Source: a virus
Taxonomy: Duplodnaviria > Heunggongvirae > Uroviricota > Caudoviricetes
IMG/VR virus record: IMGVR_UViG_2541047119_000012
Coordinates: 1-11,855 of that record
Strand: one strand, 5' to 3'
Length of the DNA stretch: 11,855 nt
This document shows, one piece after another, positions 1 through 11,855 of the stretch (positions within the stretch are counted from its first letter, which is position 1; each line of letters opens with the position of its first letter). Made by a program: the position numbers and the translations under genes. The notes under the pieces are model-generated. The model was not told the DNA's origin, did no database searches, and was given only the letters and a program-made list of their open reading frames with translations.

Positions 1-1
1 C

Positions 2-319
2 CATCACAGTGATAAAGGTTCTCAGTATGTATCACTGGCCTATACGGAGCGACTAAAAGAAGCCGGATTACTGGCATCAACAGGGAGTACAGGCGACTCG
101 TATGACAACGCGATGGCTGAGAGCATCAATGGTCTTTACAAAGCGGAGGTAATACACCGTAAGAGCTGGAAAAACCGTGCAGAAGTGGAACTGGCCACAC
201 TAACGTGGGTGGACTGGTATAACAATCGACGATTGCTGGGAAGGCTGGGCCATACTCCTCCGGCAGAAGCAGAAAAAGCTTATTATGCTTCCATCGGAAA
301 CGATGATCTGGCAGCCTGA
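2..319 (+). mobile_element. IS3-family-like transposase (rve/DDE integrase fold), C-terminal part; 5' end lies outside the window
   Basis: Frame open from position 2 to the stop at 317-319. Translation ...HSDKGSQYVSLAYTERLKEAGLLASTGSTGDSYDNAMAESINGLYKAEVIH...LTWVDWYNNRRLLGRLGHTPPAEAEKAYY shows the DDE-transposase C-terminal signature. The right end of the IS is not resolvable by eye; a GC hairpin at about 349-371 may lie in the terminal region. Confidence 0.75.
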
Positions 320-720
320 GTTCACAGATAAAACACTCTCCAGGAAACCCGGGGCGGTTCAGCCGCCCGGATGGATTGGGTTATGAGCCCGTCGTCCGGT
401 GATGCTCTTCTCTGTTTTGTAAAAAGGACGGTACCAGCCGGAAGCAAGGGTACAAGCTGGTACCGCTAAGACTACACACAGCATAAAGTTGTGGTGCCGG
501 GTGCCTCCCGGTGCCTGGCGAAGGTTGCACACCAGGCGGGTGGGTATCCACAGAAGGTCGACTGTCAGCCTCAACCTTAACCCGCGTGCGCTGAGCCGCA
601 TTCACCACAACGCTAAGGATTCTCTCTGGTTGAAAATACTTAGCTGTTATGTGCCTGTCTTTTCACCACTTCAGGCTCGGTGGTATCCTTTTAAGCCCGT
701 ATACATAAAAGGAAAATCAA

Positions 721-966
721 ATGACTTTTGATGAAAAAGAACTTGATAATGCAATTAATAAAATCATCGTAACGTCGCTCTTTTCCTGTCTCAGCGACAC
801 TCAGCAAAAACAGTTCTACGAATCGGCTTTCAACATGATCGAGCGTTGTTGTTTCTGCGATGCCGACGAGTTACCTGAAAAAATCAGGAAACAGTTGGCT
901 GATGCTCTTCGAGTGCGACTTTCTGACCAATTTTCTGAAATGTACTCTCCGAATTTGGACAAATAG
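721..966 (+). CDS. hypothetical small protein (81 aa)
   Basis: ATG preceded by AAAAGGAAAA Shine-Dalgarno-like sequence at about 8 nt. No recognisable motif. Overlaps the 3' end of the convergent ORF 884..1180. Confidence 0.35.
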   Translation: MTFDEKELDNAINKIIVTSLFSCLSDTQQKQFYESAFNMIERCCFCDADELPEKIRKQLADALRVRLSDQFSEMYSPNLDK

Positions 967-1180
967 AAAAAGGCCATTTCCATTCAGGGTCTGATGGAAA
1001 GACTTCAGCCTGTTCTAAAGCACGGCGTAAAGAGAACACAACTCCAGCCATAATCTGATGTTTCCCATTGGTCCAGCTATCGCCGCTCTGATCTACAGGG
1101 GCGGCTATGTCGTATGACCAAACGACTTCACAGTTATTGTTTAAAATCTGGACTTTCATTTCATACACCTGCTTTAACAT
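884..1180 (-). CDS. hypothetical small protein (98 aa, or 91 aa from the second Met)
   Basis: Leftward ORF downstream of the OL-like operators, the position of the first leftward gene (N) in lambda. An AGGTG sits about 7 nt before the second in-frame ATG. Not arginine-rich and no motif recognised. Confidence 0.3.
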   Translation of the reverse strand: MLKQVYEMKVQILNNNCEVVWSYDIAAPVDQSGDSWTNGKHQIMAGVVFSLRRALEQAEVFPSDPEWKWPFSICPNSESTFQKIGQKVALEEHQPTVS

Positions 1181-1366
1181 GAGTGCCTAGTGGCACAACA
1201 TGACTCAACGAATCATCCTGGACTTCATATGCCCCAGGCGGCTACTTCGTGGGCGTCCTGCCTGTTCGTTTTTGACATTTACTGACTGCTTACGACACAT
1301 GCACCGTGTTGCAACCAGATTTTGTTGTAATCCTGTAGTTGGTCTGGAATAAAAGATAAAATTAAA

Positions 1367-1403
1367 TTGCGAGATATGCAAGTGGTATTTGCGAGATATG
1401 CAA
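1367..1403. promoter_or_regulatory. OL-like operator pair: two identical 15-bp sites TTGCGAGATATGCAA (1367-1381, 1389-1403)
   Basis: Exact direct repeat with TTGC-N7-GCAA symmetry, the same pattern as the site TTGCGTGATAAGCAA in the cI-cro intergenic region. On the minus strand a TTGCAT -35-like hexamer overlaps the sites. Confidence 0.45.
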
Positions 1404-1415
1404 ATTTATAGGTAA

Positions 1416-1437
1416 TAAAAAGCCACCTTTCGGTGGC
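1416..1437 (-). terminator. intrinsic terminator downstream of the repressor gene (minus strand)
   Basis: GCCACC-TTTC-GGTGGC hairpin (1422-1437). On the minus strand it is followed by a T-run (plus-strand AAAAA at 1417-1421), about 20 nt past the cI stop. Confidence 0.6.
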
Positions 1438-1457
1438 CGATGGATGGGATATTGAGG

Positions 1458-2150
1458 TTAATTATGTCTCTTAAGGGTTTGCGACTGACTGATTAAGACC
1501 TTTCCAAAGACCATGAATCGGTGTTCGTTTTCGCTAGTAATTCCCCATTCACGGTAAATCTGGTTATCAGAAATCACCAGCAGTTTGTCAGGAATCATTT
1601 GAAGTCTTTTAACGTATATTTTGTCATCAAAACCAAAGACATATATACCATCACCATCAAACTGATTGATGCTGACATCAACGAAGATGAGATCTCCTGG
1701 CTCAATGGTTGGACACATACTGTCCCCACGAACGTTGATAACTTTGATGTGATTGGCTGGTCGTCCGCCGAACATTGATACAGCATTATCAGTTCTGTAT
1801 TCGATGGCATGAATCACATCAATGACATCACCGCCCTGGATAAGGCCATTTCCCGCACTGGCACTGATATCCAGCATTTCAATACGGAACACATCCTTCA
1901 CCTGCGCAACATCCTCATTATTACTGTTTTTATATACAGTATTACTTTTGTGGGCAGAGGTAAAGAGATCAGCAATATCAACACCTAAGCTCTTGGCAAT
2001 ATTACTCAGTGTTTGTTCGGTAAATTGTTTTTGCTTACCCGTTTCTAAGCGCGAGATGTTCGCCGCATCTACTCCTATCGCTTCAGCGAGATCGGCGATT
2101 TTCATGTTCTTCGCTTGGCGAAGTTGTCTGACTCGGTTTCCTATGTTCAT
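1458..2150 (-). CDS. cI: CI-type prophage repressor: N-terminal XRE-family HTH, C-terminal S24 (LexA-like) self-cleaving peptidase domain
   Basis: N-terminus MNIGNRVRQLRQAKNMKIADLAEAIGVDAANISRLETG is an HTH_XRE. C-terminus has GDSMCPTIEPGDLIFVD (catalytic Ser) and a downstream VKRL Lys, the S24 Ser-Lys dyad; Ala-Gly in ...SASAGNG... is a candidate cleavage site. Divergent from the cro-like gene. No SD before the ATG, so the mRNA is probably leaderless. Confidence 0.9.
   Translation of the reverse strand: MNIGNRVRQLRQAKNMKIADLAEAIGVDAANISRLETGKQKQFTEQTLSNIAKSLGVDIADLFTSAHKSNTVYKNSNNEDVAQVKDVFRIEMLDISASAGNGLIQGGDVIDVIHAIEYRTDNAVSMFGGRPANHIKVINVRGDSMCPTIEPGDLIFVDVSINQFDGDGIYVFGFDDKIYVKRLQMIPDKLLVISDNQIYREWGITSENEHRFMVFGKVLISQSQTLKRHN
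1922..1941. promoter_or_regulatory. LexA (SOS) box-like palindrome TACTGTTTTTATATACAGTA inside the cI coding sequence
   Basis: CTGT-N8-ACAG with an all-A/T spacer and TA flanks, close to the E. coli LexA box consensus TACTGTATATATATACAGTA. My by-eye scan of CTGT occurrences found no other copy in the window. Confidence 0.45.
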
Positions 2151-2247
2151 GCGTTTATTACATTTCTTTATTGCGTGATAAGCAAATCAACTTGCGCAAA
2201 ATAATTGCGTGAAATAACATGCATAACGCGCAATATTTGGAGGGCGT
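2151..2247. promoter_or_regulatory. OR-like divergent promoter/operator region between cI and cro
   Basis: Operator-like sites TTGCGTGATAAGCAA (2171-2185), palindrome TTGCGCAA (2192-2199), TTGCGTGAAATAACA (2206-2220) and inverted ATTGCGCG (2227-2234). Rightward promoter candidate: -35 TTGCGC (2192-2197), 17-bp spacer, -10 TAACAT (2215-2220), then GGAGGG RBS before the cro ATG. Confidence 0.6.
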
Positions 2248-2508
2248 ATGCAATCACCATTACGAAATGTGCGTAAGGCGCATGGTTTCACTTTGCAGCA
2301 TGTTGCTGCGGGTGTTCAAGTCAATCCAGCGACGTTGAGTCGTATTGAGAGGCTGGAGCAGATTCCATCTATCGAGCTTGCAGAACGTTTAGCCAATTTT
2401 TTTAAGGGTGAAGTCAGCGAAATGCAGATTCTTTATCCGGCACGTTTTCAATCTAGCCAAAACCAGAATGGGTTTAAACCACAGGAACAGGAGGTGAACC
2501 GTGGGTAA
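2248..2508 (+). CDS. cro: Cro-like HTH transcriptional regulator (XRE family)
   Basis: Divergent from cI. GFTLQHVAAGVQVNPATLSRIER is an HTH. GGAGGG RBS. Its stop overlaps the GTG start of the next gene. Confidence 0.7.
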   Translation: MQSPLRNVRKAHGFTLQHVAAGVQVNPATLSRIERLEQIPSIELAERLANFFKGEVSEMQILYPARFQSSQNQNGFKPQEQEVNRG

Positions 2509-3052
2509 GCATCACTGGAAAGTAGAAAAACAGCCTGAGTGGTACGTGAAAGCTGTCAGAAAAACTATCGCAGCGTTGCCGGGGGGGTACGCTGAAGCTG
2601 CTGACTGGCTGGATGTAACAGAGAACGCATTATTTAACCGCCTTCGTGCCGATGGCGATCAGATTTTCCCGCTGGGATGGGCAATGATTTTGCAACGTGC
2701 TGGTGGAACTCACTTCATTGCTGACGCTGTGGCGCAGTCTGCAAATGGCGTCTTTGTGTCTCTTCCTGATGTCGAGGATGTGGACAACGCCGATATCAAC
2801 CAACGCCTGCTGGAGGTCATTGAACAGATCGGCAGTTATTCAAAACAGATTCGTTCAGCAATTGAAGACGGTGTAGTGGAACCGCATGAGAAGACAGCAA
2901 TTAACGACGAGCTGTACCTCTCAATTTCGAAGCTGCAGGAGCATGCAGCACTGGTCTACAAAATTTTTTGCATTTCAGAAAGTAATGACGCCCGCGAGTG
3001 TGCAGCTCCGGGCGCCGTGGCGTGTCGTGACTGTGGAGAAACTAACGCATGA
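2501..3052 (+). CDS. YdaT/CII-like prophage regulatory protein (183 aa)
   Basis: GTG start after GGAGG RBS, translationally coupled to cro. Sits in the cII position of the immunity module. Family assignment is from memory of YdaT/CP76-type proteins, not from a search. Confidence 0.5.
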
Positions 3053-3387
3053 ACAGTTTAACAACACACTACCGTCGCTCGCAACTGATTGCACTTCCTG
3101 TACCGGGTGGAAAAGCGAAGGTGGAGTATTGCTATGCAGTGAATGTACCAGGTGACAGGGAAATTGTAACCCACAGCTTTGCAGAGTGGGCTGTGGGTGA
3201 TTTCAACAGGCAAAAGGAGACAGTCCTTTGCGACAAGTTAACCGCTGGTTCAAAGATCACTACGGAGTGCCCGTCAGAGTCATTCGTTGGGAACCGGAAA
3301 CACAACGGGTTATCTACCTCCGCGAAGGCTATGAGCATGAGTGCTTCAGCCCGCTCGAACAGTTTCGTCGTAAATTCAGGGAAATAG
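3049..3387 (+). CDS. hypothetical protein; the ORF as drawn is probably chimeric (5' part plausible, 3' part doubtful)
   Basis: ATG overlaps the upstream stop (ATGA) with GGAG about 7 nt upstream, so the start is credible. The 3' half is Ser-rich and low-complexity with rarer codons, while another frame looks coding (see 3228..3407). Confidence 0.3.
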
Positions 3388-3407
3388 AGGTCGGTCATGA
3401 GCACTAA
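3228..3407 (+). CDS. candidate small protein (59 aa) with TTG start, not in the ORF track
   Basis: AAAGGAGA at 3212-3219, 8 nt before TTG at 3228. Translation [59 protein letters not shown] is protein-like. Stop overlaps the start of the replication gene. May instead be the 3' part of a frameshifted gene begun at 3049. Confidence 0.3.
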
Positions 3408-4338
3408 ATTAACCGGCTATGTATGGGATGGTTGCGCTGCGTCAGGCATGAAGTTATCCAGCGTGGCAATTATGGCCCGCCTGGCTGATTTCAGTAATGA
3501 CGAAGGTGTGTGCTGGCCATCAATTGAAACCATTGCCCGCCAGATTGGCGCGGGGATGAGCACCGTCAGAACGGCTATCGCACGGCTGGAAGCAGAAGGC
3601 TGGTTAACGCGTAAGGCGCGTCGCCAGGGTAACCGCAATGCGTCGAATGTTTATCAGCTTAACGTTGCGAAGCTTCAGGCAGCGGCATTTTCTCAACTGT
3701 CAGATTCTGACCCGTCAAAATCTGACGCATCAAAATCTGACCCGTCAAAATTTGATGCGTCGAAATCTGGCAAAAAAGCGGGTTTTCACCCGTCAGAATC
3801 TGGCGGGGATCCGTCAGTAAAATCAAAACATGATCCGTCAGATAAAAAACCTTCTCGTCCGGACGCTTCGCAACCGGACACGCAGACGGATGAACAGGAT
3901 TTTTTAACTCGCCATCCTGATGCGGTTGTATTCAGCCCTAAAAAGCGCCAGTGGGGGACGCAGGATGATTTGACCTGTGCACAGTGGCTCTGGAAAAAAA
4001 TCATCGCCCTGTACGAGCATGCCGCCGAATGTGACGGCGAGGTGGTTCGTCCCAAAGAACCGAACTGGACAGCCTGGGCAAACGAAATTCGCCTGATGTG
4101 TGTGCAGGATGGTCGTACTCATAAACAAATCTGCGAGATGTACAGCCGCGTCAGTCGCGATCCGTTCTGGTGCCGTAACGTGCTCAGCCCGTCGAAGCTG
4201 CGGGAAAAATGGGATGAGCTTTCCCTGCGCTTATCGCCGTCCGTCAGCACGTACACCGAAAAACGCGAGGACCCGTACTTCAAAGCCAGTTACGACAACG
4301 TGGACTACAGCCAGATCCCGGCAGGATTCAGGGGGTGA
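3397..4338 (+). CDS. lambda O-like replication initiator (N-terminal winged-HTH) with an internal iteron array
   Basis: N-terminus ...VAIMARLADFSNDEGVCWPSIETIARQIGAGMSTVRTAIARLEAEGWL is a wHTH. The repeat region encodes SDPSKSDASKSDPSKFDASKS. Position follows the immunity module as O does in lambda. Confidence 0.55.
   Translation: MSTKLTGYVWDGCAASGMKLSSVAIMARLADFSNDEGVCWPSIETIARQIGAGMSTVRTAIARLEAEGWLTRKARRQGNRNASNVYQLNVAKLQAAAFSQLSDSDPSKSDASKSDPSKFDASKSGKKAGFHPSESGGDPSVKSKHDPSDKKPSRPDASQPDTQTDEQDFLTRHPDAVVFSPKKRQWGTQDDLTCAQWLWKKIIALYEHAAECDGEVVRPKEPNWTAWANEIRLMCVQDGRTHKQICEMYSRVSRDPFWCRNVLSPSKLREKWDELSLRLSPSVSTYTEKREDPYFKASYDNVDYSQIPAGFRG
3706..3845. repeat. iteron array (putative replication origin): four tandem 15-bp units (3706-3765) plus degenerate copies to about 3845, followed by an A-rich stretch
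   Basis: TCTGACCCGTCAAAA / TCTGACGCATCAAAA / TCTGACCCGTCAAAA / TTTGATGCGTCGAAA at exact 15-bp phase; 3724-3734 and 3751-3761 are reverse complements. Further CCGTCAGA-like copies at 3789, 3810, 3834, then AAAATCAAAACA...GATAAAAAACC. Confidence 0.6.
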
Positions 4339-4340
4339 GC

Positions 4341-4829
4341 ATGAGTCTTTTGAATGACGTTCAGAAATTCATTGAAGCCCATCCGGGCTGTACTTCCGGA
4401 GACATTGCGGATGCTTTTGCAGGTTACTCACGGCAGCGCGTTCTGCAGTCTGCAAGCAAGTTACGTCAGAGTGGGCGTGTGGCTCACCGTTGTGAAGGGG
4501 ATACACGCAGACATTTCCCGCGCCTGACTGAGAGAGCGCAGGAGCCGGAACCACAACCAGTTCGTGAAACCAGACCTGTGCGCAATTTCTATGTCGGCAC
4601 TAACGATCCCCGGGTGATTTTGTGCCTGACCCGCCAGGCTGAAGAACTGGAGTCCAGGGGCTTATACCGTCGTGCTGCAACGGTGTGGATGGCGGCATTC
4701 CGTGAAAGCCACTCCCAGCCAGAACGAAACAATTTTCTGGCGCGTCGTGAGCGGTGCTTACGGAAAAGCAGCAAGCGCGCTGTATCGGGTGAAGAGTGGT
4801 ATCTGTCAGGGAATTACGTGGGGGCTTAA
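4341..4829 (+). CDS. PerC-family-like transcriptional regulator (about 162 aa)
   Basis: ATG at 4341 after GGGGG RBS (an in-frame GTG at 4335 is also possible). Motif ...ELESRGLYRRAATVWMAAF... resembles the PerC/Pch signature as I recall it. Stop overlaps the next start (TAATG). Confidence 0.45.
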   Translation: MSLLNDVQKFIEAHPGCTSGDIADAFAGYSRQRVLQSASKLRQSGRVAHRCEGDTRRHFPRLTERAQEPEPQPVRETRPVRNFYVGTNDPRVILCLTRQAEELESRGLYRRAATVWMAAFRESHSQPERNNFLARRERCLRKSSKRAVSGEEWYLSGNYVGA

Positions 4830-5482
4830 TGAGTAATAAATATTGCCAGGCGCTGGTGGAGCTGCGGAACAAACCAGCCCATGAACTGAAGGAAGTGGGC
4901 GATCAGTGGCGCACGCCGGACAACATTTTCTGGGGAATTAACACCCTGTTTGGCCCGTTTGTTCTGGATCTGTTCACTGACGGTGATAACGCCAAATGTG
5001 CCGCTTATTACACTGCGGAAGACAACGCGCTGGCGCATGACTGGTCAGAACGTCTTGCGGAGCTTAAAGGTGCTGCCTTTGGTAATCCCCCATACAGCCG
5101 CGCCAGTCAGCATGAGGGGCAATACATCACCGGCATGCGTTACATCATGAAGCATGCCAGTGCCATGCGTGATAAAGGCGGGCGCTATGTTTTCCTGATC
5201 AAAGCTGCCACCAGCGAAGTGTGGTGGCCGGAAGATGCAGATCATATTGCTTTTATTCGCGGGCGTATTGGTTTTGAACTGCCTGCCTGGTTTATCCCGA
5301 AGGATGAGAAGCAGGTGCCGACAGGCGCTTTCTTCGCTGGTGCTATTGCTGTTTTCGACAAGACCTGGAAGGGACCGGCAATCAGCTACATCGGGCGCTA
5401 TGAACTTGAGGCATGTGGTGAGGCCTTTCTGGCGCAGGTTCGCCAGCAGGCAGAAAAACTGGTCAGGGAGATGGCGGCATGA
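4829..5482 (+). CDS. phage Dam-type DNA N6-adenine methyltransferase
   Basis: N-terminal WRTPDNIF motif and catalytic NPPY (...AAFGNPPYSRA...). ATG overlaps the upstream stop; the GTG at 4796 in the ORF track is less likely. Confidence 0.85.
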   Translation: MSNKYCQALVELRNKPAHELKEVGDQWRTPDNIFWGINTLFGPFVLDLFTDGDNAKCAAYYTAEDNALAHDWSERLAELKGAAFGNPPYSRASQHEGQYITGMRYIMKHASAMRDKGGRYVFLIKAATSEVWWPEDADHIAFIRGRIGFELPAWFIPKDEKQVPTGAFFAGAIAVFDKTWKGPAISYIGRYELEACGEAFLAQVRQQAEKLVREMAA

Positions 5483-5805
5483 CGACGTTAACTCAATGCC
5501 AGCAGCAGGTGCTGGATATGCTGATTTCTTATCAGAAAGAACGTGGCTTCCCGCCAACCAATCAGGAGGTGGCAACCATGCTGGGATACCGTTCAGTGAA
5601 TGCAGCGGTGGAGCATCTTCGCGCACTGGAGAAAAAAGGCGTCATCACGATAAAGCGTGGCGTGGCCCGGGGGATAACGCTTCATATCGCGGTGAAGGAC
5701 GACGACAGCGAGGCGGTCGGGATTATCCGCGCACTGCTTGCCGGTGAGGAAAACGCAAGGCTGCGTGCAACCCACTGGTTACATGAGAGGGACCTGAAAG
5801 TATGA
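5479..5805 (+). CDS. LexA N-terminal DNA-binding-domain protein with no S24 peptidase domain (108 aa)
   Basis: LTQCQQQVLDMLISYQKERGFPPTNQEVATMLGYRSVNAAVEHLRALEKKGVITIKRGVARGITL aligns by eye along its length with the E. coli LexA N-terminus (…LTARQQEVFDLI…[44 protein letters not shown]…). No Ala-Gly cleavage or Ser-Lys peptidase region follows. GGGAG RBS; ATGA overlap with the methyltransferase stop. Confidence 0.8.
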   Translation: MTTLTQCQQQVLDMLISYQKERGFPPTNQEVATMLGYRSVNAAVEHLRALEKKGVITIKRGVARGITLHIAVKDDDSEAVGIIRALLAGEENARLRATHWLHERDLKV

Positions 5806-6191
5806 AGCTGATCCTGCCTTTTCCGCCCAGCGTGAACACGTACTGGCGACACCCCAACAAAGGGGCGTTTGCTGGTAAGAGCCTGATAAGCGCGGCGGGG
5901 CGAAAATTCCAGAGCGCGGCGTGCGCAGCAATAGTTGAGCAGTTACGTCGTCTGCCGAAACCAACGTCGGCACCTGCTTCAGTGGAGATCGTGTTGTTTC
6001 CTCCGGATAACCGGATCCGCGATCTGGACAACTATAACAAGGCGCTGTTTGACGCCCTGACCCACGCGGGTGTGTGGGAAGACGACAGTCAGGTGAAAAG
6101 AATGCTGGTGGAGTGGGGACCGGTTATCCCGGAAGGGAAGGTCGAGATCACTATCAGTAAGTACGAGAAAACGGCGGGTGCAGCCGCCTGA
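5802..6191 (+). CDS. rusA: RusA Holliday-junction resolvase
   Basis: PFPPSVNTYWRH...DLDNYNKALFDALTHAGVWEDDSQV matches the RusA family conserved blocks. Start overlaps the upstream stop. Confidence 0.9.
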   Translation: MKLILPFPPSVNTYWRHPNKGAFAGKSLISAAGRKFQSAACAAIVEQLRRLPKPTSAPASVEIVLFPPDNRIRDLDNYNKALFDALTHAGVWEDDSQVKRMLVEWGPVIPEGKVEITISKYEKTAGAAA

Positions 6192-6210
6192 TTAAGAGGA
6201 GAAACGAAGT

Positions 6211-7020
6211 ATGAATAATCTGATGGTCATTGATGGTATTGAAGTTCGTCGTGATGCTTATGGGCGTTACAGCCTGAACGATCTGCATCGCGCAGCAGTA
6301 GCATCTGGTGCAAATGCCAGAACCAAGGAGCCGGGAAAGTTTCTTTCCAGCCAACAAACTGTTGAGCTTGTTCATGAATTGACCAACACCCAGAATTTGG
6401 GTGTTGACCCGGTGAGTGTGATTCATGGGGGAAATGAACGGGGAACGTATGTCTGCAAGGAACTGGTGTATGCCTATGCAATGTGGATCAGCCCGTCATT
6501 CCATCTGAAGGTGATCCGTACTTTCGATATGGTAACCAGCGCACCGGAAAAATTATCCGGACAGGCTGCTGACAAGATGCAGGCTGGCGTGATCCTGCTG
6601 GACTTTATGCGCCGGGAGTTAAACCTGTCTAACTCTTCAGTGCTTGGTGCCTGTCAGAAACTCCAGGAGGCTGTTGGCTTACCGAATCTGGCACCGCGCT
6701 ATGCCATTGATGCTCCTGCTGACGCGCCTGATGGCTCAAGCCGCCCCACGCTATCATTGAGTGCACTGCTGAAGCAGTATGGTATCCGCCTGACAGCTAA
6801 TCAGGCATATCACCAGATGGCGAAGCTGGGGATCGTTGAACAACGTGAACGATACAGCCGCACTGCGATTAACAACATCAAAAAATTCTGGTCGCTGACA
6901 GCGAAAGGCTGCATGTTCGGCAAGAACATCACCAGTCCCGCAAATCCGCGCGAGACGCAGCCGCATTTCTTCGAATCCCGATTCCCTGAGCTGTTAAAGC
7001 TGCTCGATACCGTTCATTGA
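6211..7020 (+). CDS. KilA-N domain protein with a C-terminal antirepressor-like region
   Basis: N-terminus ...DGIEVRRDAYGRYSLNDLHRAAVASG...GTYVCKELVYAYAMWISPSFHLKVI is a KilA-N domain. Strong RBS AAGAGGAGAAA. Confidence 0.75.
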   Translation: MNNLMVIDGIEVRRDAYGRYSLNDLHRAAVASGANARTKEPGKFLSSQQTVELVHELTNTQNLGVDPVSVIHGGNERGTYVCKELVYAYAMWISPSFHLKVIRTFDMVTSAPEKLSGQAADKMQAGVILLDFMRRELNLSNSSVLGACQKLQEAVGLPNLAPRYAIDAPADAPDGSSRPTLSLSALLKQYGIRLTANQAYHQMAKLGIVEQRERYSRTAINNIKKFWSLTAKGCMFGKNITSPANPRETQPHFFESRFPELLKLLDTVH

Positions 7021-7021
7021 G

Positions 7022-8017
7022 GTGACCGTGAGAGCACTACTGACTCCTGAAATTGCCCCGCGTATGGGGATCGTATTGTTCAGGCCAGGTTCAGAGCTGA
7101 TGCCCCTGTTTATGCAGGGGCGTGTCCTGCTGGAGCCTGAGCCGGAACGTTATTCATCTTTCGCCAGTGGTGCCGTTCCGGCGGCATCACAACCGCTGGC
7201 GGATGATCCTGCCGTTCGGGCCGTGTTCCGCAATGAGGCAGTGATCCGTCGTGCTGGTGGCGTGGAATGTCTTGAAAGCTGGTTACTTCGTGAAAAAGGC
7301 TGCCAGTGGCCTCATTCCGACTGGCACAGCGAGAACATGACCACAATGCGACACGCTCCGGGCGCAATCCGTCTGTGCTGGCACTGCGATAACCAGCTGC
7401 GCGATCAGTTCACGGAACGGCTGGAATCAATGGCAACGGATAACTGTGCCCGCTGGGTGTTGTCTGTTGTGCGTCGGGATCTCGGTTTTGATGACAGTCA
7501 CGTTGTGACAATGCCGGAACTGTGCTGGTGGCTGATTCGTAATGACCTGGCGGATGCCTTACCGGAAAGTGCAGCCCGTAAGGCACTTAGATTACCGAAG
7601 CCTGTTGTGCCGTCTGTTACCCGGGAAAGTGACCTTGTGCCTTCGGTTCCTGCCACCAGCATCATCCAGGATAAAGCGAAAAAGGTGCTGGCGCTGAAAG
7701 TGGATCCTGAGTCGCCGGAGTCTTTTATGTTACGCCCAAAACGTCGCCGCTGGGTTAATGAAAAGTACACGCGCTGGGTTAAGACACAGCCGTGTGCATG
7801 TTGTGGAAAGCCTGCTGATGATCCCCACCACCTGATAGGTCACGGTCAGGGAGGAATGGGTACAAAAGCGCATGACCTCTTTGTGTTGCCTTTGTGCAGA
7901 AAGCATCACGACGAGCTGCATGCGGATACCGTGGCATTTGAAGAGAAGTATGGCTCCCAGCTGGAGCTGATATTTCGTTTTATCGATCGTGCGCTGGCAA
8001 TAGGCGTACTGGCGTAA
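7022..8017 (+). CDS. DUF968-like prophage protein with a C-terminal Cys/His zinc-binding (HNH-like) motif
   Basis: C-terminus ...PCACCGKPADDPHHLIGHGQGGMGTKAHDLFVLPLCRKHHDELH. Nin-region position between rusA and Q. Start is uncertain (GTG 7022 or a downstream start). Confidence 0.5.
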   Translation: MTVRALLTPEIAPRMGIVLFRPGSELMPLFMQGRVLLEPEPERYSSFASGAVPAASQPLADDPAVRAVFRNEAVIRRAGGVECLESWLLREKGCQWPHSDWHSENMTTMRHAPGAIRLCWHCDNQLRDQFTERLESMATDNCARWVLSVVRRDLGFDDSHVVTMPELCWWLIRNDLADALPESAARKALRLPKPVVPSVTRESDLVPSVPATSIIQDKAKKVLALKVDPESPESFMLRPKRRRWVNEKYTRWVKTQPCACCGKPADDPHHLIGHGQGGMGTKAHDLFVLPLCRKHHDELHADTVAFEEKYGSQLELIFRFIDRALAIGVLA

Positions 8018-8030
8018 GTGGAGAACGAGC

Positions 8031-8783
8031 ATGAACTTTGAAGCCTTACCGAAATATTACTCCCCAAAATCTCCAAAATTGAGCGATGACGCACCGGCGA
8101 CAGGCTCTGGTGGTTTAACAATTACGGATGTAATGGCTGCGCAGGGGATGGTGCAGTCGAAAGCACCGCTTGGGTTTGCCTTATTCCTGGCAAAAGTTGG
8201 TGTTCAGGATCCTCAGTTTGCGATTGAAGGTCTGCTCAATTACGCGATGGCACTGGATAACCCGACATTGAACAAATTGAGTGAAGAAACCCGGCTACAG
8301 ATCATTCCTTACCTTGTGAATTTTGCCTTTGCTGATTATTCCAGGTCTGCGGCAAGTAAGGCTCGCTGTGAGCATTGTGCTGGTACTGGATTTCATGATG
8401 TATTGCGCGAGGTGGTGAAACACTCCAGAAGCGGGGAATCTGTTATCAAGGAAGAGTGGGTGAAGGAACTGTGTCAGCATTGTCATGGTAAGGGAGAAGT
8501 CAGCACAGCGTGCAGAGGGTGTAAGGGTAAAGGTATTGTCCTGGATGAAAAAAGAACCAGGCTTCATGGCACGCCTGTTTATAAGGTTTGTGGGCGTTGC
8601 AATGGAAACCGGTTTAGCCGTTTACCAACCACACTGGCGCGGCTTCATGTCCAGAAGCTGGTACCAGACCTGACGGATTATCAGTGGTACAAAGGATATG
8701 CAGATGTCATTGATAAACTGGTTACAAAGTGCTGGCAGGAAGAAGCGTATGCTGAGACACAATTGAGGAAAGTGACGAGATGA
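8031..8783 (+). CDS. Q: late-gene antitermination protein Q (phage 82 / QuuQ type, 250 aa)
   Basis: Four CxxCxGxG-type zinc-finger repeats (CEHCAGTG, CQHCHGKG, CRGCKGKG, CGRCNGN). Sits immediately upstream of a promoter plus short-transcript terminator. GGAG RBS. Confidence 0.8.
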   Translation: MNFEALPKYYSPKSPKLSDDAPATGSGGLTITDVMAAQGMVQSKAPLGFALFLAKVGVQDPQFAIEGLLNYAMALDNPTLNKLSEETRLQIIPYLVNFAFADYSRSAASKARCEHCAGTGFHDVLREVVKHSRSGESVIKEEWVKELCQHCHGKGEVSTACRGCKGKGIVLDEKRTRLHGTPVYKVCGRCNGNRFSRLPTTLARLHVQKLVPDLTDYQWYKGYADVIDKLVTKCWQEEAYAETQLRKVTR

Positions 8784-8814
8784 ATGATTTTCGACGAAAA
8801 TGGCGACATGATGC

Positions 8815-8843
8815 TTGCATTTTTCAAAAAAAATGGATAATAT
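8815..8843 (+). promoter_or_regulatory. PR'-like late promoter (-35 TTGCAT, 17-bp spacer, -10 TAATAT); a qut site is expected to overlap
   Basis: Hexamers at 8815-8820 and 8838-8843, directly downstream of Q and about 50 nt upstream of an intrinsic terminator. Confidence 0.5.
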
Positions 8844-8890
8844 TTTCTCAATGATAGGCATTGTGTGTCCGGCTTTAATAAAAAGTAGAA

Positions 8891-8917
8891 AACCCGCTGA
8901 TGTGCGGGTTTTTTTTC
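8891..8917 (+). terminator. tR'-like intrinsic terminator
   Basis: AACCCGC-TGATGT-GCGGGTT hairpin followed by TTTTTTTT. Confidence 0.7.
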
Positions 8918-8937
8918 GGAATTTTAGATGTGTGGCA

Positions 8938-8967
8938 TTGAAATGGTATTCGGCGAGTAGGTAGAAT
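8938..8967 (+). promoter_or_regulatory. sigma70-like promoter upstream of the cargo genes (-35 TTGAAA, 18-bp spacer, -10 TAGAAT)
   Basis: Hexamers at 8938-8943 and 8962-8967, about 27 nt upstream of the 8995 ATG. Confidence 0.4.
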
Positions 8968-8994
8968 TTAAACTTTCGTCTCGTCTGGATCGAC

Positions 8995-9537
8995 ATGATG
9001 TTTCAAGCCTTCCAAACAGCAGTATTTAAAAATGTTGCAGAGTATTTAAAAGGGCGCTTCCCTCATAAGTCGTTAGGGCTCGTATATGCCGACGAGCTGG
9101 TACTAAAAGATATGGAGTTCCTCAAGGCTAACAATAAACTGCGGTGGGATCCCGGACTAAAGTCGCGAGTGTTTATGGATATGATGGAAGAACACCCGAT
9201 AAAACTAGTTGTTTATTATCGTGGGGAGCCTATTGGATTTGCATTTGGGTGTTACTGTAAGCCGAAAAATGCGGTGCATATTTGCTGGATGGAAAAACGT
9301 AATGATGCACATGAAGACCTAGACCATCAGATGCTTGGTATCGTTTTGGATTGCTTCTCTGCATATGCACGATTTCTGAACCTTCAGGGTGAATCTATTG
9401 ATTCGATAGCTTTAGTTAGTCCAGTTGATGGGGCAATAAGATACTATACTGAAAGTGGTTTTGAGTACATTGCTGATTACGAACGAGGTGGTTGCGCAAT
9501 GGTGCTTAGGAGCGTTTTACCTAACCAATCAGTGTGA
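8995..9537 (+). CDS. uncharacterised cargo protein (180 aa), possibly GNAT-fold acyltransferase-like
   Basis: Lies in the AT-rich segment. C-terminal ...SIALVSPVDGAIRYYTESGFEYIADYERGGCAMVL resembles the GNAT beta5-alpha4-beta6 region, but the canonical Q/RxxGxG/A acetyl-CoA motif is not evident. Weak SD. Confidence 0.55.
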   Translation: MMFQAFQTAVFKNVAEYLKGRFPHKSLGLVYADELVLKDMEFLKANNKLRWDPGLKSRVFMDMMEEHPIKLVVYYRGEPIGFAFGCYCKPKNAVHICWMEKRNDAHEDLDHQMLGIVLDCFSAYARFLNLQGESIDSIALVSPVDGAIRYYTESGFEYIADYERGGCAMVLRSVLPNQSV

Positions 9538-9728
9538 GTTAGATTCTTAATTTCTCCAGAATCATTACAAAAGTATTGAAAACCTCTTTTAGTTGATGCA
9601 ATCTGGATCCACACAAAGCACACACAAAATGTACTACGCTTTACTTTATACATCTTCAGGTAACAAACTTTGTTGCCTTTATGCTTCAAAGAAGCAACTA
9701 CAGCTTAGTGCTGAACAAGGGGATTTTT

Positions 9729-9914
9729 ATGAAACATCATGAGCAGATAGAGATTGAGGCAGCTAAAGTCGTCGCCGAACTCTTTGCTGGCAATGCATCT
9801 CCAATGGAAACCTTTGGTATTACATGGAGTCAAACTCAGATGTTAGAGCGTAAGAATCCTGGTGTAGTGATCAAACTAGTACCGGATGACGGTAAAAAAC
9901 TTGCGTATTGCTGA
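9729..9914 (+). CDS. uncharacterised small cargo protein (61 aa)
   Basis: ATG at 9729 with AAGGGG 6 nt upstream (the track's upstream ATG at 9681 lacks an RBS). Followed by an intrinsic terminator. No motif recognised. Confidence 0.5.
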   Translation: MKHHEQIEIEAAKVVAELFAGNASPMETFGITWSQTQMLERKNPGVVIKLVPDDGKKLAYC

Positions 9915-9973
9915 TAATTTTTAAAGATTTTTTCAGCTAGAGAATCGATTATTTTACTATAAATCGCGAAGGA

Positions 9974-9998
9974 GCCCCACATATTGTGGGGCTTTTTG
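9974..9998 (+). terminator. intrinsic terminator closing the cargo unit
   Basis: GCCCCACA-TAT-TGTGGGGC hairpin (8-bp stem) followed by TTTTTG. Confidence 0.7.
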
Positions 9999-10171
9999 TT
10001 TCATCTTAGTTAGCCGTTATTCACATTCACTACTTTGCTACTTATCCACTGTAAAAATAAATTGTGAATTATTTTGTGGCTTATTGTTAGTGTTCTATCA
10101 ATTTTGTGTGTGATATTCCATTGGCGTGGTTATTATCTGTGCATCGCACTTAAATGTATAAAGCTCACTAG

Positions 10172-10486
10172 TTGAGACAATCCTACCACCAGTTGGTGGT
10201 ATCTCATGATTCACTGAATTGCAAATCTTCTGAATTGCTGGATGAGTTTAAATCTCACCGGCGCTATTTCTCCGTATCAGTCTCCGTGCCTTATACCGAT
10301 GTCAGGACGCATAAGCCCGTTCAGTTCTACCCGGGTAAACATCCGTGCGAGAAACCGGCGGATATGCTCAGGCAAATAATCAATGCCAGTAGTCGACCTG
10401 GTGATCTGGTTGCTGATTTCTTTATGGGATTCGGTTCCACAATAAAAGCAGCAATGGCGCTGGGGCGTCGGGCGTTAGGTGTTTAA
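10172..10486 (+). pseudogene. remnant of a beta-class N6/N4 DNA methyltransferase (C-terminal motif region only)
   Basis: ...HPCEKPADMLRQIINASSRPGDLVADFFMGFGSTIKAAMALGRRALGV corresponds to the conserved ...HPTQKP...GD.VLDPF.GSGTT..AA..LGR..IGIE block with degenerate residues. No DPPY-encoding N-terminal part upstream, which is AT-rich non-coding. TTG start only. Confidence 0.55.
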
Positions 10487-10553
10487 CTTGAGTCAGAGCG
10501 GTTTAATCAGACGGTGAAAGAGGTAAGTGAACTGGTGGGGAAATAATTCTGGT

Positions 10554-10579
10554 GGCCACGTTGCGTGGCCTTTTTATTT
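10554..10579 (+). terminator. intrinsic terminator immediately upstream of the holin gene
   Basis: GGCCACG-TTG-CGTGGCC hairpin (10554-10570) followed by TTTTTATTT. Confidence 0.6.
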
Positions 10580-10622
10580 CCAACACAGCACCCGCAAATA
10601 TCGCGAGGTGAGAGATGACGAA

Positions 10623-10958
10623 ATGCCTCATAACCCAAATACCTGGCCGGACTGGCTGGAGTTGTTTCAGAGCTGGTGGCGTGGAGACACACCGCTGGGT
10701 GCAGTGATTATGTCGATCGTTATGGCTGGTTTGCGCATCGCCTATTTTGGCGGTGGTGGTGGCTGGAAGCGAAAAACGCTCGAGATTTTGCTATGTGGCG
10801 CTCTGACGCTGACCTTTGCATCCGCTCTTGAGTATGTCGGATGGCCTAAATCACTTTCTGTTGCCATTGGTGGTGGGGTGGGGCTGATCGGTGTCGATGC
10901 TATTCGTGGGGCTGCAATGCGAGTAATCGGTAACAAATTTGGTGGCTCTAAGGAGTAA
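10623..10958 (+). CDS. holin (lambda-S-like architecture, about 111 aa)
   Basis: Three hydrophobic segments (AVIMSIVMAGLRIAYFGG; TLEILLCGALTLTFASALEYV; LSVAIGGGVGLIGVDAIRGAAM) and a charged C-terminus, directly upstream of the endolysin. GAGGTGA about 11 nt before ATG 10623. The track's 10527 GTG start would place a terminator hairpin inside the coding sequence. Confidence 0.7.
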   Translation: MPHNPNTWPDWLELFQSWWRGDTPLGAVIMSIVMAGLRIAYFGGGGGWKRKTLEILLCGALTLTFASALEYVGWPKSLSVAIGGGVGLIGVDAIRGAAMRVIGNKFGGSKE

Positions 10959-10961
10959 TTT

Positions 10962-11438
10962 ATGCAGGTACTAAATTCCCAGCGTAAAGCTTTCCTTGAT
11001 ATGGTGGCTTGGTCAGAAGGAACGGATAACGGACGACAACCGACACGTAACCACGGTTATGACGTTATTGTCGGTGGTGAACTCTTCACTGATTACTCCG
11101 ATCACCCTCGCAAACTTGTCACGCTAAACCCCAAACTCAAATCAACAGCCGCCGGACGTTACCAGCTTCTTTCACGTTGGTGGGATGCTTACCGTAAACA
11201 GCTTGGTTTGAAAGACTTCTCCCCCAAAAGCCAGGACGCTGTGGCATTGCAGCAGATTAAAGAACGTGGCGCTTTACCGATGATTGATCGTGGTGATATT
11301 CGTCAGGCTATCGACCGTTGCAGCAATATCTGGGCTTCGTTGCCGGGCGCTGGTTACGGTCAGTTCGAGCATAAGGCTGACAGCCTGATTGCAAAATTCA
11401 AAGAAGCAGGCGGAACGGTCAGAGAGATTGAGGTATGA
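10962..11438 (+). CDS. R: endolysin, lambda R-type lytic transglycosylase
   Basis: ...[57 protein letters not shown]...[91 protein letters not shown]... is almost identical to phage lambda R as I recall it. AAGGAG RBS. Confidence 0.95.
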
Positions 11439-11855
11439 GCAGAGTAACCGCGATTATTTCCGCTCTGGTTATCTGCATCATCGTCTGCCTGTCATGGGCT
11501 GTTAATCATTACCGTGATAACGCCATTACCTACAAAGCCCAGCGCGACAAAAATGCCAGAGAACTGAAGCTGGCGAACTCGACAATTACTGACATGCAGA
11601 TGCGTCAGCGTGATGTTGCTGCGCTCGATGCAAAATACACGAAGGAGTTAGCTGATGCGAAAGCTGAAAATGATGCTCTGCGTGATGATGTTGCCGCTGG
11701 TCGTCGTCGGTTGCACATCAAAGCAGTCTGTCAGTCAGTGCGTGAAGCCACCACCGCCTCCGGCGTGGATAATGCAGCCTCCCCCCGACTGGCAGACACC
11801 GCTGAACGGGATTATTTCACCCTCAGAGAGAGGCTGATCACTATGCAAAAACAAC
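11435..11855 (+). CDS. Rz: Rz i-spanin (inner-membrane spanin); 3' end beyond the window
   Basis: [48 protein letters not shown]... matches lambda Rz. ATG overlaps the R stop. Confidence 0.9.
11655..11837 (+). CDS. Rz1: Rz1 o-spanin lipoprotein, embedded in the +1 frame of Rz
   Basis: [24 protein letters not shown]... has a lipobox (VVGC) and the proline-rich [17 protein letters not shown], lying wholly inside Rz in another frame as in lambda. Confidence 0.9.

Follow-up and report, generated by a model that had tools for sequence, protein, structure and literature searches.

The prophage gene yfdN encodes a PerC-like protein with a predicted winged helix and follows replication initiators that end in a DnaT-like tail

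Introduction

What stands behind the initiator gene of a lambda-type replication module when the helicase loader is missing? The question is raised by a stretch of 11,855 nucleotides from a Caudoviricetes virus (IMG/VR record IMGVR_UViG_2541047119_000012, positions 1 to 11,855; "the window" below means this whole stretch), in which an O-like initiator gene is followed, in the position of lambda P, by a gene at 4341-4829 whose product carries a PerC motif. A first-pass annotation of the window had drawn attention to this arrangement and had suggested that the product, as a relative of the PerC and Pch virulence-gene activators of pathogenic Escherichia coli, could cross-regulate host loci. The gene is yfdN, an already known and annotated, widespread and uncharacterised prophage gene, and since it has been named a PerC homologue before and is annotated in RefSeq, the presence of a PerC-like gene after the initiator is not a new observation.

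The setting of the gene is of wider concern. Among 314 lambdoid phages, 34 have been described as 'O-only', and their replication 'is not yet understood' (Genome Res 2025, PMC12315714). Here we report that yfdN encodes a two-domain protein under purifying selection, and that the gene occupies an exclusive but optional place after initiators bearing a DnaT-like tail. We regard the chances as about even that YfdN, expressed along with the initiator, serves as a DNA-binding regulator or nucleoid remodeller, and the comparisons suggest that the tail of the initiator, which may recruit the DnaC-DnaB of the host, is the better explanation of the missing loader. While yfdN itself is minor as a discovery, its replication setting and the initiator tail are the part of greater interest.

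Results

Identity and distribution of the gene

Scans of the open reading frames (ORFs) with Pfam, PHROGs and NCBIfam identified the window as the early-right and lysis region of a lambdoid prophage. Its genes of immediate interest are the following.

3397..4338, plus strand: O-like initiator (phrog_391 'replication initiation O-like', 4e-135; HTH_36 N-domain by Pfam)
4341..4829, plus strand: yfdN (ORF; phrog_1324; identical to annotated yfdN)
4829..5482, plus strand: phage N6-adenine methyltransferase, Dam (Pfam Dam, 4.2e-45; TIGR01712, 253 bits)

These genes open a tight block that runs from the initiator through yfdN and the Dam methyltransferase to a LexA DNA-binding-domain protein and RusA. 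The initiator stop codon lies 2 nt 5' of the yfdN ATG, the yfdN stop and dam start overlap (junction TAATG), and no promoter-like site was found near yfdN, nor any internal promoter in the overlapping O-yfdN-dam block. The yfdN ORF is intact, with 489 bp encoding 162 amino acids from the ATG at 4341, and a Shine-Dalgarno sequence (AGGGGG) is located 7-8 nt before this codon, within the last codons of the initiator gene. The RefSeq start is a GTG at 4335 that overlaps the initiator stop codon and gives 164 amino acids. The protein is basic (isoelectric point (pI) 9.9; 18.6 kDa) and matches phrog_1324 from end to end (residues 1-161, 2.4e-78).

At 95-100% DNA identity, yfdN is present in 2674 of 5426 complete E. 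coli genomes, annotated as 'yfdN: PerC family transcriptional regulator'. A copy 100% identical to that of the window is found in strain 7784 (NZ_CP018247), where the prophage adjoins tRNA-Thr near proA. The initiator-yfdN-dam block was recovered in 56 of 50,697 phage records (SfII, SfIV, SfV, mEp460, 2H10, ST64B and Stx2c/Stx2a phages), and carriers of the gene include K-12 as well as (pro)phages of Salmonella, Shigella, Citrobacter and Hafnia. In K-12 it resides in the prophage CPS-53 (KpLE1), and it has been termed 'the K12 unique PerC homologue' (PMC5931665). The CPS-53 gene and its orthologues in SfII, SfIV, SfV, mEp460, ST64B and the Stx2c/Stx2a phages are the same gene as that of the window, which is ~97% identical in DNA to copies lying next to a gene annotated yfdM; the order of initiator, yfdN and then dam or yfdM is common to both. 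Compared with CPS-53, which is more decayed, the window prophage has a remnant of an IS3-family insertion sequence (IS) at its left edge; otherwise there is no substantive difference between them.

The YfdN family is small, comprising 148 representatives at E <= 0.001 when 1.84 billion representative proteins were searched exhaustively with a profile, and it splits into two-domain proteins of 140-165 amino acids and short PerC-only proteins. Among 58 distinct alleles of yfdN the ratio of nonsynonymous to synonymous substitution (dN/dS) was ~0.04-0.07 in every segment, indicating strong purifying selection; because this applies to all segments, we conclude that the YfdN protein is functional.

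Domain architecture of YfdN

A model of YfdN was built with AlphaFold2 from an alignment of 18 sequences. Judged by the predicted local distance difference test (pLDDT), two globular domains are joined by a disordered linker and followed by a disordered tail.

4347..4520, plus strand: winged helix-turn-helix, residues 3-60 (AlphaFold2 pLDDT 85-92)
4527..4592, plus strand: disordered acidic, proline-rich linker, residues 63-84 (pLDDT below 50; length and sequence vary across the family)
4608..4784, plus strand: PerC-like basic three-helix bundle, residues 90-148, pI 11.3, with the motif ELESRGLYRRAATVW (Pfam PerC; pLDDT ~90)
4785..4826, plus strand: disordered tail at the C-terminus, bearing the conserved motif W-x-L-[AS]-G-x-[YF]-x-G (pLDDT below 50)

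In the model the N-terminal domain consists of helices at residues 3-13, 19-25 and 31-44 and a beta hairpin at residues 47-60. It superposes on the winged helices of ArsR/SmtB, MarR, BlaI and PerR at 2-2.5 Å over ~60 residues (Foldseek E 0.02-0.1), and divergent members of the family give weak Pfam matches to Penicillinase_R, MarR_2 and HTH_24. The helix-turn-helix-like N-terminal region described in the first-pass annotation is thus borne out as a predicted winged helix. The possibility that it is a duplicate of the winged helix of the initiator was considered and rejected, as there is no similarity between them. The PerC-like domain modelled alone gave a pLDDT of 80.6, and its Foldseek neighbours were generic TPR/MIT-like folds (E > 0.5) that we have not taken as functional evidence. 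Both globular domains are basic (pI 9.8 and 11.3), and a PDB sequence search with the YfdN profile returned no solved relative.

The two-domain architecture and the C-terminal motif are kept throughout the family down to ~24% identity, with G157 and G161 of the tail nearly invariant down to ~25% identity. Our search found no known partner of this motif and no known function for it.

Relation to PerC and Pch

A hidden Markov model search matched residues 98-150 of YfdN to Pfam PerC (PF06069) with 37.3 bits (cutoff 22.6; E = 3.3e-9), including the motif ELESRGLYRRAATVWMAAF at residues 101-120, and the same model matched 28 of 28 diverse YfdN-type proteins at E <= 0.05. The original description of a PerC-motif protein at this position therefore stands. 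The match is confined to positions 5-57 of the 90-position model, whereas PchE (ECs_1588, 90 amino acids) covers positions 1-89 with 152.8 bits and a Pch-like protein of 103 amino acids covers positions 1-85 with 102 bits. By BLASTP, residues 94-145 of YfdN align with residues 1-52 of PchE at 40% identity, and the C-terminal segment of PerC and Pch ('...T..MGI...', model positions 58-90) is absent from YfdN. Alignment to the PerC/Pch proteins thus holds for their core but fails for their C-terminal third.

PerC of enteropathogenic E. coli, PchA/B/C/E of enterohaemorrhagic E. coli and YfdN have in common a helix hairpin with a third helix (AE.LE..GLYRRAA..W ... RR..CL), and all are encoded on mobile elements. 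YfdN differs in size, its 162 amino acids including an extra winged helix and linker relative to the single-domain PerC/Pch proteins of 90-104 amino acids, and in bearing its own LSGNYVG tail in place of their C-terminal third. It differs also in location, being fixed after the replication initiator, while pchE is found elsewhere, in element Sp7 after genes for a primase and a single-stranded-DNA-binding (SSB)-like protein. PchE was examined as a candidate YfdN-type protein and rejected, because it is a full PerC protein of 90 amino acids in Sp7.

The initiator and its candidate origin

Within the initiator gene the following elements were recognised.

~3699..3810, no strand: candidate origin, an iteron array of at least 6 palindromic GTCARAATCTGAC repeats at 15-bp spacing
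3943..4227, plus strand: lambda-O-type C-terminal domain, initiator residues 183-277 (BLASTP against lambda O residues 187-270)
4276..4335, plus strand: DnaT/YdaU-type C-terminal tail (...YDNVDYSQIPAGFRG), the last 20 codons

The whole protein aligns with lambda O by BLASTP at E = 7e-26. Its N-domain is HTH_36, not the Phage_rep_O domain (PF04492) of lambda O, and a PDB sequence search with the initiator gave weak MarR-type matches only. The iteron array encodes a repetitive DPSKSDASKS peptide, an arrangement that corresponds to the lambda-style origin within the initiator gene. In lambda, classical genetics identified the C-terminal domain of O as the part that contacts P. That an O-like initiator lies upstream, with YfdN in the position of lambda P, is confirmed by the phrog_391 match and the lambda-O-type C-domain.

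YfdN and the position of the helicase loader

To place this arrangement in context, IMG/VR and GTDB genomes were searched with several divergent queries, and 176 YfdN-type loci in 5 clades (50% identity or more) were collected; as a single query, P0131 found no viral loci. Locus sets were made up of the 80 best matches per query and represent mostly closely related enterobacterial prophages, such that their counts are not independent events. In all loci with an upstream flank (171/171, down to ~25% identity) a same-strand upstream ORF ends between -4 and +6 nt from the yfdN-like start. The upstream proteins are replication initiators of at least 5 N-terminal types, with C-terminal domains of at least 3 types (lambda-O-like, Phg_2220_C and a third).

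No loader was detected alongside YfdN. A phmmer search found no lambda-P homologue in the 176 loci, and a Walker-A screen of the same loci flagged no YfdN ORF and no adjacent loader, with only a few distant Walker-A ORFs. Conversely, a YfdN-like ORF was found in none of 80 P-anchored loci. YfdN itself matched no IstB, DnaC or AAA family in Pfam, PHROGs or NCBIfam and gave no meaningful BLASTP alignment with lambda P. The first-pass annotation had seen no DnaC/P-like or helicase gene in the window, in agreement with the Pfam and PHROGs scan of the window ORFs, and the complete SfII genome likewise contains no helicase, loader or primase. Among loci with an initiator C-domain of the window type, yfdN was present in 76 of 76, a count that is not made up of independent cases because the relatives are 99-100% identical.

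YfdN and lambda P are thus alike in position alone, each lying directly 3' of, and tightly coupled to, an initiator gene that contains the origin. They are dissimilar in sequence; moreover, YfdN is optional and its predicted folds are of DNA-binding or regulatory kinds.

A DnaT-like tail on the initiators

The end of the window initiator (SQIPAGFRG) is identical at 8 of 9 positions to that of E. coli DnaT (SQIPPGFRG), which closes with ...NTVSEPDSQIPPGFRG. Of the initiators linked to YfdN, 131 distinct sequences among 171, all but one (170) close with the corresponding motif, IPxGFRG, which recurs on initiators whose domains are unrelated. Because the tail coincides with the Shine-Dalgarno sequence and start region of the next gene, we considered whether its conservation could be a nucleotide effect; this was rejected, for synonymous positions vary freely. 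Across 76 distinct nucleotide versions of IPxGFRG, isoleucine is encoded by 3 codons, proline by 3, glycine by 4 and arginine by 5, the last drawn from both codon families, which indicates that selection acts on the protein tail and not only on the Shine-Dalgarno sequence. A further candidate explanation, a partner motif specific to YfdN, was discarded since initiators related to that of the O-only phage LLS, for which all tabulated tails bear IPxGFRG, have the tail in modules that mostly lack yfdN.

In DnaT the tail is kept in 107 of 107 full-length orthologues retrieved and is better conserved than the preceding 20 residues. When DnaT was compared by hhalign with initiators of the Phg_2220_C type, only the last ~20 residues aligned (probability 91.6%, E = 8e-7); because the alignment is limited to this segment, what the two have in common is a short linear motif, IPxGFRG, and no domain. 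The globular domains of DnaT and the window initiator are unrelated by sequence, and no domain homology was found between the C-terminal domain of DnaT and the initiator C-domains, the comparison for the lambda-O type having used the tail-less lambda O as its reference row. As an observation in its own right, the YfdN tail resembles the initiator tail in having a C-terminal aromatic residue between glycines.

IPxGFRG also stands on host and prophage proteins with a link to DnaC. In E. coli dnaT is located directly upstream of dnaC. In the Rac prophage, YdaU ends with ...QVNTVSLPDSAIPPGFRG and its gene is directly upstream of that for YdaV, an IstB/DnaC-family ATPase by Pfam. E. coli dnaT-dnaC and the window are similar in that the next gene follows very closely, this gene being dnaC after dnaT and yfdN after the initiator. 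A comparison of initiator tails with the loader encoded downstream, drawing on related loci (L427-L435, L267-L346 and L182), gave the following associations.

Gifsy-2, vB_EcoS-613R10 and Klebsiella phi18.2: loader 48-50% identical to E. coli DnaC; initiator tail IPxGFRG
Aeromonas pAEv1818: DnaC-like loader, 51% identical; initiator tail degenerate, PPGFN
phiP27, mEpX1, Hafnia yong1 and Vibrio phi2: DnaC/IstB-like loader, 32-35% identical; initiators without IPxGFRG
76 initiators (44 distinct) with lambda P downstream: tail TDWIYGV[DE]L in 76/76; IPxGFRG absent

The initiators of mEpX1 and Hafnia yong1, which are paired with a distant DnaC-like loader, have the tail DYGQTxxPxWA in common. The simplest reading of these associations is a 'tail code', in which the extreme C-terminus of an initiator would specify the loader that is used and IPxGFRG would pair with DnaC proper. 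On this basis we infer that the initiators of O-only phages, having kept the DnaT-like tail, recruit host DnaC-DnaB directly through it, and the tail comparisons suggest that this explains the missing loader better than a replacement of P by YfdN does.

No mention of IPxGFRG was found in the open literature, where a search with the motif string returned collagen papers only. No DnaT-DnaC contact has been documented, and the way in which DnaB-DnaC is brought in by the preprimosome is stated as not known (PMC5778457, PMC11087952, PMC13377028). Helicase loading in O-only phages (PMC12315714) and recruitment of DnaB-DnaC by DnaT (Nat Commun 2026, PMC13377028; J Biol Chem 2024, PMC11087952) are both acknowledged open questions, to which IPxGFRG offers one concrete and cheaply testable candidate contact.

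yfdN is optional in O-only modules

LLS is an experimentally grown, plaque-forming O-only phage (PMC12315714). Its initiator gene is followed directly by a methyltransferase gene, and no YfdN-like ORF was found in its right arm. We collected 79 IMG/VR loci with a relative of the LLS initiator and a downstream flank, of which 78 were classified and one remained unclassified. In 74 of the 78 there was no YfdN-like ORF within 4 kb, while in the other 4 one adjoined the initiator. Since yfdN is lacking from LLS and these 74 relatives, whose initiators are of the same kind, YfdN is unlikely to replace P, and the notion that it stands in for the helicase loader was not borne out. Nor is YfdN tied to one kind of initiator, as the initiators paired with a single, nearly identical YfdN clade have N-domains of at least 3 types and C-domains of at least 2.

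We also observed that an IS629 insertion interrupts yfdN in the Stx2a-converting phage Stx2a_WGPS2 (AP012537.1 / NC_049941.1); should this phage still be inducible and replicate, the gene would be dispensable.

Modules with an IPxGFRG initiator and a DnaC-like loader encode a small winged-helix protein next after the loader.

L427:3253-3813: YdaW of Rac (HTH_20 + DUF1627)
L428:2258-2605: DUF977 protein of Gifsy-2
L433:2237-2572: DUF977 protein of Klebsiella phage phi18.2

Like yfdN, these genes follow the replication genes of modules with IPxGFRG initiators. Their products have no PerC-like domain, and their likeness to YfdN is below significance, the winged helix of YfdN giving only a weak hhalign match to YdaW residues 85-140 (E = 0.0013, probability 18%). 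Because DnaC-containing relatives encode a winged-helix protein at this point, YfdN plausibly fills the same post-loader slot, with the loader gene simply absent.

Discussion

The reading to which we give roughly even chances, in which YfdN is produced together with the initiator and acts as a DNA-binding regulator or nucleoid remodeller, can be set out as follows. As an early-right-operon gene of lambdoid (pro)phages that have an O-type initiator and no loader, yfdN would be expressed together with the initiator, and the winged helix would anchor YfdN on DNA. Pch is thought to bind DNA at many chromosomal loci and to lower their occupancy by H-NS (PMC4764244). By analogy with the Pch/PerC core, the PerC-like bundle of YfdN might loosen H-NS-type silencing complexes, which could favour transcription of the induced phage genome and possibly the opening of its origin. 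YfdN would not load the helicase; host DnaC-DnaB would instead be recruited by the IPxGFRG tail of the initiator.

Several points weigh against this reading. The Foldseek matches of both YfdN domains are statistically non-significant, and we found no experiment or functional data on YfdN in the literature. Because YfdN lacks the C-terminal third of PerC and Pch, anti-silencing of the Pch type may not extend to it. A general regulator would be expected after O-P modules too, where YfdN never occurs, and its absence from all 80 P-anchored loci, taken with its presence in all 76 loci of the window type, fits a role linked to replication. Finally, LLS might be complemented in trans, since its host, K-12, has a yfdN of its own in CPS-53.

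These last points lead to the main alternative, that YfdN is a replication accessory factor of O-only modules, a functional but non-homologous counterpart of lambda P that binds the C-terminal tail of the initiator, aids capture of host DnaB-DnaC or remodels the origin. Such a role would explain why the gene comes directly after the initiator, at a tight or overlapping junction, in all 171 loci (5 clades, down to ~25% identity), and why it does not occur with lambda P or next to a Walker-A loader. The 76 loci in which yfdN follows an initiator with the window-type C-domain are also suggestive, this being the lambda-O domain, although these relatives are the 99-100% identical set noted above. 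YfdN has a conserved C-terminal motif of its own, and the nearest (non-significant) fold neighbours of its PerC-like bundle are the TPR/MIT peptide-binding modules. Nevertheless, the gene is optional, given that LLS forms plaques without its own copy, that 74 of 78 classified LLS-type loci do without it and that it is broken by an insertion sequence in one Stx2a phage record; the YfdN clade does not co-vary with the initiator domains, the tail excepted; and YfdN is built from the domains of a DNA-binding regulator. We therefore consider an accessory role rather unlikely, and its more specific form, in which an unrecognised accessory of the O-only module works with the IPxGFRG-tailed initiator through the winged helix, the TPR/MIT-like bundle and its own tail, somewhat more doubtful still. 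If an accessory role were correct, YfdN might act at the origin or at the contact between tail and loader, which would make it a counterpart of P for some initiator types.

The PerC-like domain invites two further explanations, both drawn from host gene regulation. It could be an anti-activator in the style of the ANR family, one that binds and so titrates an AraC-family regulator or H-NS and is directed to its target by the winged helix. Residues 96-142 of YfdN match NCBIfam ANR_neg_reg (NF033650, E = 3.5e-5) and the domain has the shape of a small helical bundle, in keeping with the action of ANRs through protein-protein contact; the score of 23.5 bits, however, is below the curated cutoff of 32, and ANRs are single-domain proteins of under 10 kDa in genomes with AraC-family members (PMC4983702), whereas YfdN has two domains and the scans of the window ORFs identified no gene of the AraC family. 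We find this improbable. Least probable of all, to the point that we would be surprised to see it hold, is that YfdN is a virulence regulator of the Pch/PerC type that activates ler/LEE1 (LEE, locus of enterocyte effacement) or other host loci in attaching-and-effacing strains. The Pfam PerC match is above threshold, the identity to PchE reaches 40% over 52 residues, and other workers deleted yfdN from the host of a ler-lacZ assay, if only as a precaution (PMC5931665). Against this, model positions 58-90 are missing, and membership of the PerC family does not predict activation of the LEE, since ler is activated by PchA/B/C but not at all by PchD and less than two-fold by PchE (PMC5931665). 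The gene is under strong purifying selection, is present in half of E. coli, K-12 included, and occurs in (pro)phages of Salmonella, Shigella, Citrobacter and Hafnia; its presence in K-12, Salmonella, Hafnia and Citrobacter argues that control of the LEE is not its main function, and unlike pchE it is fixed in a replication-gene slot. Cross-regulation of ler as the main role of YfdN looks unlikely from these comparisons. The observation from which this work began is thus confirmed, and the interpretation attached to it in the first-pass annotation is partly supported.

Other features of the window and rare fusion proteins

The gene set of the window comprises a cI-like repressor, cro, a CII-like gene (CP76), DUF4222, the initiator, yfdN, Dam, the LexA DNA-binding-domain protein, RusA, KilA-N, DUF968/HNH, Q, holin and lysozyme. 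Further features are as follows.

113-319: C-terminal remnant of an IS3-family transposase (rve_3/rve_2), at the left edge and adjoining the immunity region
5479-5805: protein of 108 amino acids with only the LexA N-terminal DNA-binding domain (LexA_DNA_bind, 69 bits; TIGR00498 positions 1-91 of 203)
8995-9537 and 9681-9914: two ORFs of 180 and 77 amino acids that separate Q from the lysis genes, a place typical of moron genes
10172-10486: truncated N6/N4 DNA methylase fragment upstream of holin

The IS3 remnant and the truncated methylase suggest that this copy of the prophage is partly decayed. Neither ORF between Q and the lysis genes matched Pfam or PADLOC, and the PADLOC scan gave no meaningful match that would link the window to a defence system. 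The protein encoded at 5479-5805 is without the S24 protease domain and could be a non-cleavable mimic of LexA on SOS boxes.

Finally, the databases contain rare proteins of 186-234 amino acids (P0026, P0027, P0029, P0039 and P0104) in which the HTH_36/DnaD_N N-terminus of an initiator is joined to a PerC domain. They are singletons or belong to very small clusters, with 1 to 13 sequences as members, and probably represent in-frame deletions that fused the initiator to yfdN.

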